Positions 2,870 through 43,504 of a stretch of DNA of 44,752 nucleotides are shown here, piece after piece; the first letter of the stretch is position 1; each line of letters begins with the position of its first letter. The notes below the pieces were generated by a model. That model saw nothing but the letters and a program-made list of their open reading frames with translations, was not told the DNA's origin and did not search any database. Origin of the DNA: a virus. Its lineage: Duplodnaviria; Heunggongvirae; Uroviricota; Caudoviricetes. Made by a program: the position numbers and the translations under genes. The stretch lies in IMG/VR virus record IMGVR_UViG_2671180296_000008, positions 1 to 44,752 of that record; one strand, given 5' to 3'.

Positions 2870-2944
2870 GTCCTCTTAGTTAAATGGATATAACGAGCCC
2901 CTCCTAAGGGCTAATTGCAGGTTCGATTCCTGCAGGGGACACCA
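2870..2944 (+). tRNA. argW: tRNA-Arg (anticodon CCU)
   Basis: GTCCTCTTAGTTAAATGGATATAACGAGCCCCTCCTAAGGGCTAATTGCAGGTTCGATTCCTGCAGGGGACACCA; anticodon loop CTCCTAA; T-arm GGTTCGATTCC. Confidence 0.9.
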
Positions 2945-2950
2945 TTTATC
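2930..2950. repeat. attL core: 21-bp direct repeat CTGCAGGGGACACCATTTATC covering the tRNA 3' end
   Basis: Exact 21-nt identity with 43055-43075. Confidence 0.65.
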
Positions 2951-3105
2951 AGTTCGCTCCCATTCGTACCAGTCCGCAAAATTCCCTGAATATCAAGCCT
3001 TCCGCAGATTCACAGTTCGTAATGGTTCGCGTCAGATCGTTGACAGCCGCACTCCGTGACGGGTAAAAAGTGGATAAAATAATTTTACCCACCGGATTTT
3101 TACCC

Positions 3106-4263
3106 ATGCTCACCGTTAAGCAGATTGAAGCAGCAAAGCCGAAAGAAAAACCATACCGCCTTCTCGATGGTAATGGCCTGTACCTTTATGTCCCTGTATC
3201 CGGGAAAAAGGTATGGCAGCTTCGCTACAAGATTGACGGTAAGGAGAAAATCCTGACCGTCGGAAAATATCCGCTTATGACTTTGCAGGAGGCAAGGGAT
3301 AAAGCATGGACTGCGAGGAAAGACATCTCGGTTGGCATCGATCCGGTAAAAGCGAAAAAGGCTTCGTCTAACAACAATTCCTTTAGTGCGATTTACAAGG
3401 AATGGTACGAGCACAAGAAGCAAGTATGGTCAGTAGGCTATGCAACTGAACTTGCCAAAATGTTTGATGACGACATTTTACCCATCATCGGCGGCCTTGA
3501 GATTCAGGATATTGAGCCGATGCAACTGCTGGAAGTAATCCGCAGATTTGAAGATCGCGGTGCAATGGAGCGAGCCAACAAGGCCCGCAGAAGATGCGGC
3601 GAGGTTTTCCGTTACGCTATTGTCACTGGTAGGGCTAAATATAACCCGGCACCTGACCTTGCAGACGCCATGAAAGGATACCGTAAGAAGAACTTCCCAT
3701 TTCTTCCTGCAGACCAGATCCCGGCATTCAACAAAGCACTGGCAACATTTTCAGGAAGTATCGTATCGCTCATTGCCACCAAGGTTTTACGCTATACAGC
3801 CCTAAGAACGAAAGAGCTTCGTTCCATGCAATGGAAGAACGTCGATTTTGAAAACAGGATTATCACCATTGACGCCAATGTGATGAAGGGACGCAAAATT
3901 CATGTGGTTCCTATGTCAGACCAGGTAGTTGAACTTCTCACTACGCTAAGCTCAATCACCAAACCAGTATCAGAGTTTGTTTTTGCCGGGCGCAACGATA
4001 AGAAGAAGCCAATCTGCGAGAACGCGGTATTGCTTGTGATTAAACAAATCGGCTATGAGGGTCTGGAAAGCGGTCACGGATTCAGGCATGAATTCAGCAC
4101 GATTATGAACGAGCACGAATGGCCTGCTGACGCTATTGAAGTGCAACTTGCACATGCCAACGGCGGATCTGTGCGCGGGATTTACAACCATGCTCAGTAT
4201 CTAGATAAGCGCAGAGAAATGATGCAGTGGTGGGCGGACTGGATTGATGAAAAGGTGGAGTGA
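3106..4263 (+). CDS. intS: Tyrosine integrase, IntS-like
   Basis: MLTVKQIEAAKPKEKPYRLLDGNGLYLYV... recognised; start taken at ATG 3106 rather than the GTG at 3070 of the ORF track. Confidence 0.8.
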   Translation: MLTVKQIEAAKPKEKPYRLLDGNGLYLYVPVSGKKVWQLRYKIDGKEKILTVGKYPLMTLQEARDKAWTARKDISVGIDPVKAKKASSNNNSFSAIYKEWYEHKKQVWSVGYATELAKMFDDDILPIIGGLEIQDIEPMQLLEVIRRFEDRGAMERANKARRRCGEVFRYAIVTGRAKYNPAPDLADAMKGYRKKNFPFLPADQIPAFNKALATFSGSIVSLIATKVLRYTALRTKELRSMQWKNVDFENRIITIDANVMKGRKIHVVPMSDQVVELLTTLSSITKPVSEFVFAGRNDKKKPICENAVLLVIKQIGYEGLESGHGFRHEFSTIMNEHEWPADAIEVQLAHANGGSVRGIYNHAQYLDKRREMMQWWADWIDEKVE

Positions 4264-42074: not shown

Positions 42075-42385
42075 TGTGGCCTATATGTGTTAATTGCGGA
42101 CGGATGTGCCTATCTGGATGGTGCCGAAAGTGCGACAAATGCACGAAGAAAAGACAATAACATTCCTCGCACTCGCGGGGATTTCTTTTATCTGAACTCG
42201 CTACGGCGGTTTTTTATGGAGATGATAAATGCACTTCCGAGTTACAGGTGAATGGAATGGAGAACCATTCAACAGAGTTATCGAAGCAGAGAACATCAAC
42301 GACTGCTATAACCACTGGATGATATGGGCGCAGATAGCGCATGCAGACGTAACCAACATTCGAATTGAAGAACTGAAAGAACACC

Positions 42386-42410
42386 AAGCCGCCTGATGGC
42401 GGTTTTTTTT
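42386..42410 (+). terminator. Rho-independent terminator
   Basis: GCCGCC-TGAT-GGCGG followed by TTTTTTTT. Confidence 0.6.
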
Positions 42411-42421
42411 GGTGGTAGTAG

Positions 42422-42637
42422 ATGGCTGCAATTCACATTGTATCAATAATATGCAATGCAATTCAGATAGTTGCTTGCATTATCTTTGTTTTCTCAATCC
42501 TTCGCTCCCGACGATATTCTCCAGCAATTAACCGACATCCTGCACAAGTTGAAGCCGTCAGGATGGCTATAGAGTTACGAAATGAGATGAATAAGGCATT
42601 AATGGAGATGGAGAAACCATTCACTGACAAACATTAA
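42422..42637 (+). CDS. Hypothetical small membrane protein
   Basis: 71-aa ORF with hydrophobic N-terminus, between two terminators. Confidence 0.4.
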   Translation: MAAIHIVSIICNAIQIVACIIFVFSILRSRRYSPAINRHPAQVEAVRMAIELRNEMNKALMEMEKPFTDKH

Positions 42638-42713
42638 GAGTGGAAATAAAGAAATCACACCACCTCACTCTCAATGAGGCATTTTCATTTATCAAGATAT
42701 CCAGACCTACCAT

Positions 42714-42736
42714 CACCGCATCAATGCGGTTTTTTA
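42714..42736 (+). terminator. Rho-independent terminator
   Basis: ACCGCA-TCAA-TGCGGT followed by TTTTTTA. Confidence 0.5.
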
Positions 42737-42780
42737 TTGCCTGATTTGCAGGTTCGATTCCCTATTCGGAGATAGCACTC

Positions 42781-42981
42781 ATGCAACACGAACTACAACC
42801 TGATTCACTGGTTGATCTGAAATTCATCATGGCTGATACTGGCTTCGGTAAAACCTTCATCTATGACCGGATTAAGTCCGGCGACCTGCCAAAAGCCAAA
42901 GTTATCCACGGGCGAGCAAGATGGTTATATCGTGACCATTGTGAATTCAAAAATAAGCTCTTAAGCCGCGCCAATGGGTAA
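42781..42981 (+). CDS. torI: Excisionase / recombination directionality factor, TorI/AlpA-family
   Basis: 66-aa ORF MQHELQPDSLVDLKFIMADTGFGKTFIYDRIKSGDLPKAKVIHGRARWLYRDH...; adjacent to attR as for TorI of KplE1. Confidence 0.55.
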   Translation: MQHELQPDSLVDLKFIMADTGFGKTFIYDRIKSGDLPKAKVIHGRARWLYRDHCEFKNKLLSRANG

Positions 42982-43054
42982 AATAGCGGGTAAAATATTT
43001 CTCATATCTCAAAAACACCATTCCAATCAATCCCCTGCTGCCTCAAGTAGATGT

Positions 43055-43075
43055 CTGCAGGGGACACCATTTATC
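43055..43075. repeat. attR core: 21-bp direct repeat CTGCAGGGGACACCATTTATC
   Basis: Exact identity with 2930-2950 (tRNA 3' end). Confidence 0.65.
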
Positions 43076-43504
43076 CTTCCAACGAAATCTACCTTCCCCG
43101 CGTAAAAGTTGGGTTTGGCAGCACACTTGCCCTAAATCTACTCATTTTCCCTGCAACAGGTTGAAATCTCAGCACTGTGCGGCGATGACTAAACAGCCCC
43201 GGGCCTGGCAATGTAATCATCACACAGAATCCTGATCGCGAAATCTGGCTTGACTCGATACTTCACTCCGCAATGCATTCCTTGATGGATTAGCAGGCCC
43301 GTGATACACGGGACAGGTCGCTGAATTACGACAATTTCCTGGAAATCAGCGAACCGCGTATCCTGAGTACATTTGAGCGGCTGTTCCAGAACATGAATGA
43401 GGCGTTTGGATTAGGCGATTATTAGCCGCGCTAAGCATTTTGGTATTATTATTTTCCGGTTGAGGGATATAGAGCTATCGACAACAACCGGAAAGAGTTT
43501 ACGT

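Follow-up and report, generated by a model that had tools for sequence, protein, structure and literature searches.

A conserved T-arm-like box of tRNA-Arg(CCT) in the leader of the torI excisionase gene of argW-integrating phages

The IMG/VR virus record IMGVR_UViG_2671180296_000008 (44,752 nucleotides, analysed over its whole length and referred to here as the window) carries a prophage inserted at argW, the gene for tRNA-Arg(CCT), and a 16-nt segment of this gene, TTGCAGGTTCGATTCC, recurs at the far end of the prophage, upstream of torI, which encodes the recombination directionality factor (RDF, or excisionase). Judged by comparison with related sequences, this 16-mer represents, for the Escherichia lineage, a conserved T-arm box that phages integrating at argW carry in the leader of their RDF gene. 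As to its role, the box may be a cis-regulatory mimic of the left half of attB, which would be read by the core-binding domain of the integrase and would modulate RDF expression, a reading to which we assign a probability of about 45%.

The T-arm box and its distribution

The features of argW and of the torI leader that are relevant to the box are as follows:

2870..2944, + strand: argW, tRNA-Arg(CCT), the integration target (ARAGORN)
2915..2930, + strand: tRNA copy of TTGCAGGTTCGATTCC, running from two variable-loop bases (TT) through the 5' T stem and the T loop to the CC that opens the 3' T stem
2917-2933, + strand: T arm of argW, GCAGG-TTCGATT-CCTGC (from the sequence)
42715..42736, + strand: intrinsic terminator directly upstream of the box (stem-loop 42715-42730 followed by a T run)
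42746..42761, + strand: phage copy of the 16-mer, the Escherichia-lineage T-arm box (core GTTCGATTCC at 42752-42761; CAGGTTCGATTCCC at 42749-42762)
42768..42771, + strand: Shine-Dalgarno sequence GGAG of torI, 6 nt past the box and 9 nt ahead of the ATG
42781..42981, + strand: torI, the RDF/excisionase gene, 201 bp and 66 codons (full-length match to E. coli TorI, PDB 1Z4H, E 6.6e-43)

When up to two mismatches are allowed, TTGCAGGTTCGATTCC occurs exactly twice in the window, at 2915-2930 and at 42746-42761, the latter copy lying 20 nt before the torI ATG; 0.04 is the number expected, and at least two matches were obtained in none of 100 shuffles. The identical 16-mer precedes torI in Escherichia coli K-12 MG1655 (KplE1), HK620 and Sf6. 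The match is not a product of chance; it is phage-borne, situated on the attP side and common to these elements, whose attP regions thus do not show the absence that would have marked it as a chance match. Within the window no copies of the box were found besides those in argW and the torI leader, a scan with at most one mismatch giving five matches, a number that was also reached in 18 of 100 shuffles.

The distribution of the box was determined from RDF loci of IMG/VR, of GenBank phages and of a genome set limited to one per species, the 301 loci yielding 142 unique 70-nt upstream sequences. The core of the box, GTTCGATTNC, corresponds to G53-C62 (positions 53-62) of tRNA-Arg(CCT), and it is present exactly in 105 of these sequences, with one substitution in 4 and not at all in 33, while the gap between box and GGAG is exactly 6 nt in 94 of the 105 sequences with an exact box. 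TorI-type RDFs with the box upstream occur in Escherichia, Citrobacter, Enterobacter, Serratia, Pantoea, Edwardsiella and Erwinia, and the box also precedes the g341c-type RDF found in Salmonella phages, which is 51% identical to TorI, and the RDF of phiEt88, which is 39% identical to it. Two tandem copies are carried by Erwinia phages such as Midgardsormr38 and by the lineages L125 and L090.

When 13 lineage representatives were aligned with MAFFT, the only conserved islands were the box, the GGAG and the ATG. In pairwise comparisons of 17 representatives the identity averages 0.89 over the 13-mer, compared with 0.50 over the 30 nt left of it and 0.58 at the third codon positions of the RDF gene; these representatives were picked for TTCGATT, so that seven of the columns are invariant by construction, and the contrast with the flanks is still clear, as it is from the census of 105 out of 142. 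The six bases 5' of the box core have the consensus TTnCAG, and their resemblance to TTGCAG of the tRNA suggests that the box descends from the tRNA rather than having arisen by convergence. The 5' TTG of the 16-mer is replaced by TTC, TTA, TGA and others in other lineages, and further 5' the Escherichia lineage shows, by eye, only a weak similarity to the tRNA that is interrupted by gaps, and the other lineages show none. The T arm of the tRNA at the Edwardsiella-type host attL (L232) is identical to that of E. coli.

With regard to the expression of torI, the RDF gene of HK620 is located at the distal end of the leftward pL operon, after several annotated terminators, and torI is therefore probably reached by antiterminated read-through. 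In several other lineages a comparable hairpin with a T run occupies the same position ahead of the box, as read from the sequences. The window has two intrinsic terminators, at 42386-42405 and 42715-42730, the former sharing its stem with the one terminator that HK620 has directly before the box, and between them lies an open reading frame of 71 amino acids (42422-42637) for which no Pfam match above the cutoff was obtained. This frame with its own terminator resembles a moron-type cassette inserted between terminator and box, and IME10 aligns across the whole terminator-frame-terminator stretch at 96.6% identity. In K-12 MG1655 (L340, 440-475) the terminator hairpin before the box looks degenerate by eye (ccatcgccgtcatagagcgtattttt), which may be relevant to read-through into torI in that strain. 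L091, L093 and L204 have an inverted repeat immediately 5' of the box, about 35-25 nt ahead of the RDF ATG; Citrobacter-type lineages carry it as CCTGG-N3-CCAGG, which comprises two Dcm sites, L204 as CCTGT-N3-ACAGG and E. coli as CCTGA-N3-GCAGG, with the fifth pair altered on both sides in two lineages.

Position of the box relative to the attachment sites

Between the two attachment cores lies a 40-kb prophage that is P22-like (Lederbergvirus) and belongs to the HK620/Sf6/IME10 group, and argW is the sole tRNA gene that ARAGORN finds in the window. The attachment sites and the integrase gene comprise the following features:

2930..2950, + strand: attL core, a 21-bp identity block that includes the KplE1 16-nt core CTGCAGGGGACACCAT (repeat search; PMC2951348)
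2950..3040, + strand: P' arm with five TorI-type sites, CAGTTCGC at 2950-2957, CAGTCCGC at 2970-2977, CAGTTCGT at 3013-3020, TGGTTCGC at 3023-3030 and CAGATCGT at 3033-3040 (from the sequence, with the site definition of PMC2951348 and homologous sites in other lineages)
3040-3045, + strand: -35 box TTGACA of PintS (from the sequence)
3106..4263, + strand: intS, a P4-type tyrosine integrase gene adjoining attL (Arm-DNA-bind_3, Phage_int_M and Phage_integrase domains)
42976..42995, + strand: P-arm IntS arm-type repeats, GGGTAAAA-tagc-GGGTAAAA, overlapping the torI stop codon (from the sequence)
43047..43075, + strand: attR, composed of a putative C half-site GTAGATGTC (43047-55) and the 21-bp core (43055-75) (from the sequence)

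The 21-mer CTGCAGGGGACACCATTTATC is present in exactly two copies, at 2930-2950 and 43055-43075, even when three mismatches are allowed, and it had no matches in shuffled sequence. It contains CTGCAGGGGACACCAT, the core published for KplE1 (PMC2951348), and the overall arrangement is that of the KplE1/HK620/Sf6-type argW module, in which this core is duplicated at the argW 3' end, intS is located at attL and torI at attR, and five TorI sites are accompanied by TAAA sites. The TAAA-containing motif of IntS arm sites and the TorI sites on attL, which are GTTCG, GATCG or GTCCG pentamers, have been defined in PMC2951348; as in KplE1, the P' arm of the window (2950-3100) also has TAAA arm-type sites, overlapping with PintS, and the P-arm GGGTAAAA repeats are kept in relatives. 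The torI/attR region was matched in about 1,440 of 5,426 complete E. coli genomes. In an IMG/VR contig of the MNRLQPDS-type lineage (L213, 3001-3073) a tRNA-Arg(CCT) gene is found about 1.3 kb downstream from the RDF homologue but on the other strand, an orientation that is unusual for the module.

At attR the imperfect inverted repeat GATGTC-TGCAGGG-GACACC suggests that the crossover overlap is the 7-bp TGCAGGG, within the published 16-nt core. The segment 2915-2930 would accordingly be positioned as the left (B) half-site of attB and attL. In most TorI-type lineages the left half-site adjoining TGCAGGG is T-loop-like (aaTTCGATGTA), and with GACACC it makes up an imperfect inverted repeat around TGCAGGG (window 43047-43069; attP/attR of L001-L005, L086-L109 and L342-L428).

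These data bear on a preliminary description of the stretch, in which the 16-mer and the core were suggested to be possibly a contiguous tRNA 3' half that is split by the RDF gene within the attachment site, or else as a scar of tandem or sequential integration. The coordinates and identities given there for both sequences are borne out by the window searches, with two copies of each. Moreover, the two pieces are indeed adjacent in the tRNA and share C2930 in this window, and the likely tRNA origin of the box is also in favor of such an interpretation. Their exact abutment is, however, confined to the Escherichia lineage, where the base preceding TGCAGGG on the phage side is C, as opposed to A or T in most other lineages. 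The intervening 42762-43054 contains the torI open reading frame and the P arm, and the notion that the gene splits the tRNA 3' half is contradicted by most related lineages, in which a T-loop-like sequence already stands directly left of the core (aaTTCGATGTA, or TTCGATGTA, running into TGCAGGG, versus TTCGATTCC running into TGCAGGG in the tRNA). Because the attP side is thus already provided with a degenerate contiguous T-loop copy of its own, the upstream motif is a second copy and not the missing half.

It has also been demonstrated that excisive recombination in vitro works with a 135-bp attR (PMC3509656), the inner primer of which, attR-IHF2, maps to 42958-42977; the 16-mer, ending at 42761, is about 200 bp outside this substrate, which argues against its being part of the recombination site. 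As for the scar, the motif is present in the packaged genomes of HK620, Sf6, Midgardsormr38, g341c and phiEt88 and was therefore not generated in this lysogen, and the 21-mer search with up to three mismatches revealed no third copy of the core in the window. Taken as a whole, a split attachment site or an integration scar is extremely unlikely.

Candidate readers of the box

The sequence GTTCGATTCC at 42752-42761 is the same as 2921-2930, which, with the overlap placed as proposed above, are the 10 bp left of TGCAGGG in attB, and we infer that in size and position the box corresponds to a core half-site of the B type. Among box-bearing lineages, the other sequences expected to be recognized during recombination vary: the RDF-type repeats of the P' arm are GTTCG in the TorI-type and g341c lineages versus RTTACC/GTAACC in phiEt88, L411 and L414, the integrase arm-type sites are GGGTAAAA versus GGGCATA (g341c, phiEt88, L411 and L414), and the C half-site appears as TTCGATGTA, GTAGATGTC, TTAGGTGTC or TGTGATGTC. 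The constant feature of all box-bearing lineages is an argW core of the TGCAGGGGAC type. Since recognition of the argW core is the only one that is constant across these lineages, the core-binding domain of the integrase is the best candidate reader of the box.

In such a scenario, the box would represent a free-standing second copy of the left (B) half of attB, placed in the leader of the RDF gene, where it is a candidate cis-acting protein-binding site tuning torI expression. The candidate reader is the core-binding/catalytic part of the integrase, a protein that lysogens make constitutively. If bound to the box, either by itself or with a bridge to the GGGTAAAA arm sites located at the torI stop codon, 215 bp further downstream, the integrase may damp the RDF gene at the level of read-through transcription or of translation initiation. 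All TorI relatives found target argW, and no relatives with the same RDF-attP-int layout at another tRNA target were found; more distant relatives of IntS (YeP5, VW-6S and phi297/F116) have a different gene layout.

A more elaborate form of integrase binding, which we consider rather unlikely, is that the box, a fixed 7-bp spacer and the conserved GAGAT(A/G) together form a pseudo-attB core, bound but not recombined by the integrase, thereby shutting down RDF synthesis. Such a pseudo-core would consist of a B half-site, a spacer and a B'-like half-site overlapping the ribosome-binding site of the RDF gene. If true, its occupancy, combined with the known repression of intS by TorI, would constitute a reciprocal Int/RDF circuit setting the decision between integration and excision in argW phages.

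RDFs such as Apl, Cox and Vis also act as transcriptional regulators, and the GTTCG in the box could likewise be a TorI site that serves the autoregulation of the RDF gene. This pentamer (42752-42756) fits the published TorI site (PMC2951348), and in its wider context GGTTCG of the box is like site I4 (TGGTTCGC), while some lineages have CAGTTCG as in I1 and I3. In addition, a second (A/G)T(T/C)CG pentamer is located 12 nt downstream in several lineages, and the box is at times tandemly repeated. On the other hand, the base that follows GTTCG in 30 P'-arm sites from six lineages is, as counted by eye, C in about 21, T in about 9 and A in none, whereas in the box it is always A, and the invariant ATTNC extension is not a trait of the I sites. 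The box is also kept in phiEt88, L411 and L414, whose P'-arm repeats are RTTACC/GTAACC and not GTTCG. The invariable A after the pentamer and the persistence of the box alongside RTTACC repeats make an RDF operator quite unlikely. The RTTACC/GTAACC repeats, which are presumed to bind the RDF, are found at about 2120-2230 in L336/L342 and at about 1830-1960 in L411 and L414, and the specificity of RDF sites has evidently been switched within the family; the phiEt88 repeat CGATGTAAC resembles CGATGTA of the C half-site of the same phage.

A different view of the region is provided by the GenBank records of HK620 (AF335538) and Sf6 (AF547987), which label it with 'promoter, phage integration' and a 'cII protein' site. 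It would then be the cII-activated promoter pI, driving int for lysogeny, with TTGCAG as -35, a 17-bp spacer, GAGATA as -10 and TTGCctgatTTGC as the cII site, at the second TTGC of which the 16-mer begins. However, the TTGC repeats are spaced by N5, as opposed to the canonical N6 of HK620 pRE, and unlike the box they are not conserved beyond the Escherichia lineage; a sigma-70 scan of 42300-43300 gave no promoter-like sites, and the proposed -10 overlaps the conserved Shine-Dalgarno sequence. Such a promoter would also express the RDF, thus opposing integration, the annotators having been unaware that hkaC is the RDF gene. We regard this explanation as very unlikely.

The location of the box in the transcribed leader, in the interval between terminator and Shine-Dalgarno sequence and at a fixed distance from the latter, is compatible with an element of the torI leader that acts at the RNA level, be it anti-Shine-Dalgarno pairing (AUUCC with GGAG), a processing site, a Rho-utilisation (rut) or standby element, or a mimic of the T loop. 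Pairing of UUCC with GGAG is possible in all lineages, and it has been reported that the KplE1 region increases in DNA copy number when Rho is inhibited, interpreted as escape replication (PMC11551753, citing Menouni 2013), which also counts in favor of an RNA element. Nevertheless, RNAalifold applied to the 13 representatives yielded only a 4-bp UUCC/GGAG helix of -0.84 kcal/mol with zero compensatory changes, and an Rfam search of 42300-43300 gave no family near its gathering score. The 3' strand of the T stem is not conserved, and consequently the T-arm hairpin cannot form; furthermore, ten invariant bases are unnecessary for a short pairing or a rut site, which leaves an RNA-level role improbable. 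A tRNA gene or tRNA-like structure at the box is not supported, as ARAGORN reports only argW, Rfam finds nothing near gathering scores in 42300-43300 and a conserved stem is lacking. The possibility of a leader peptide spanning the box was also rejected, the reading frame not being conserved between the Escherichia and Edwardsiella lineages as read from the sequences.

Several observations weigh against the proposed function of the box as a half-site read by the integrase. The box is dispensable, being missing from 33 of the 142 upstream sequences, including those of the isolated phages Chronis and Eho49, L094 and L416 are among the lineages that have lost it through a small deletion, and some E. 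coli prophages have point mutations in it. The tandem copies are repeated at varying periods of about 12-16 bp, a poor fit to a fixed protein geometry, and isolated core-type half-sites are normally weak integrase sites. Moreover, the C half-site of the g341c type retains only the inner G(A/G)TGTC, the outer GTTC being gone, so that recognition by the integrase alone does not obviously explain the invariant GTTC of the box.

Absence, simple deletion and point mutation of the box are equally in line with a functionless relic, i.e. an ancient duplication or capture of the argW T-arm region that became fixed beside the RDF gene and was carried along with the box/Shine-Dalgarno/RDF module, and so is the 5' flank TTnCAG with its persisting likeness to the tRNA; the phages without the box include viable ones. 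Such a relic is nonetheless unlikely: the ten core positions are kept where the RDFs are only 39-51% identical to TorI and the flanks are unalignable, the identity of 0.89 in the box exceeds that at synonymous sites (0.58) and in the left flank (0.50), and the 6-nt distance to the Shine-Dalgarno sequence is fixed in 94 of 105 sequences. Regarding the deletions themselves, L094 (about 2960-3000), L416 and L421-L428 (about 1460-1500) have lost the box by apparently the same deletion of about 25 nt between CTGG repeats, which leaves TTATTGCCTGG joined to AG and is seen in a Dryocola prophage and several g341c-type lineages; either this deletion is recurrent or the deleted module has spread.

Significance and comparison with known systems

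In the KplE1/HK620/Sf6 family the integrase is constitutive, and it has been concluded that the switch to excision has to lie in expression of the RDF, the control of which is uncharacterised (PMC2951348). Besides the ribosome-binding site, the box is the only deeply conserved non-coding element ahead of the RDF gene, which makes it a candidate for the missing control site, and its presence in E. coli K-12 (KplE1) renders it easily tested. If it proves to be an attB mimic read by the integrase or the RDF, it would exemplify the reuse of att-site fragments as operators outside the att site; if inert, it would be a clean case of a long-lived relic derived from a tRNA. In either case, short tRNA matches near prophage ends should not be taken as att-site structure. 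Previous work on this system has described the 16-17-bp core, the protein sites of attL and attR and the regulation of intS by IntS and TorI (PMC2951348, PMC3509656, PMC8787464). A T-arm-like box upstream of the RDF gene is not mentioned in these three papers, a comparison that excludes Panis 2007 (JBC), Panis 2010 (Virology) and Menouni 2013 (PNAS).

The closest known system is the argW module of KplE1 (CPS-53), HK620 and Sf6, with which the prophage shares the core, intS at attL with five GTTCG-type sites and TAAA sites, torI (identical to 1Z4H) at attR, and the 16-mer itself. The cII-dependent int promoter pI of lambda is similar in its location upstream of the int region and in its TTGC repeat, but the repeat is spaced by N5 and not N6 here and is not conserved, a -10 element is lacking, and the element is situated upstream of the RDF gene rather than inside it. 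Phage-borne copies of tRNA 3' segments at attP, said to have been described by Reiter in 1989 and Williams in 2002, are comparable in that the box is also a phage sequence identical to part of the target tRNA gene. In contrast to these segments, the box lies apart from the crossover, plays no part in restoring the tRNA after integration and covers the T loop instead of the 3' end; it is also a separate conserved unit, with a fixed spacing to the ribosome-binding site. Finally, repression of PintS by IntS and TorI via attL sites (Panis et al. 2010) provides a parallel in which an att-like sequence in a control region allows a recombination protein to regulate a gene, although in that case the proven arm-type (TAAA) and TorI (GTTCG) sites lie inside attL, whereas the box is a candidate core-type-like site located outside the att site.

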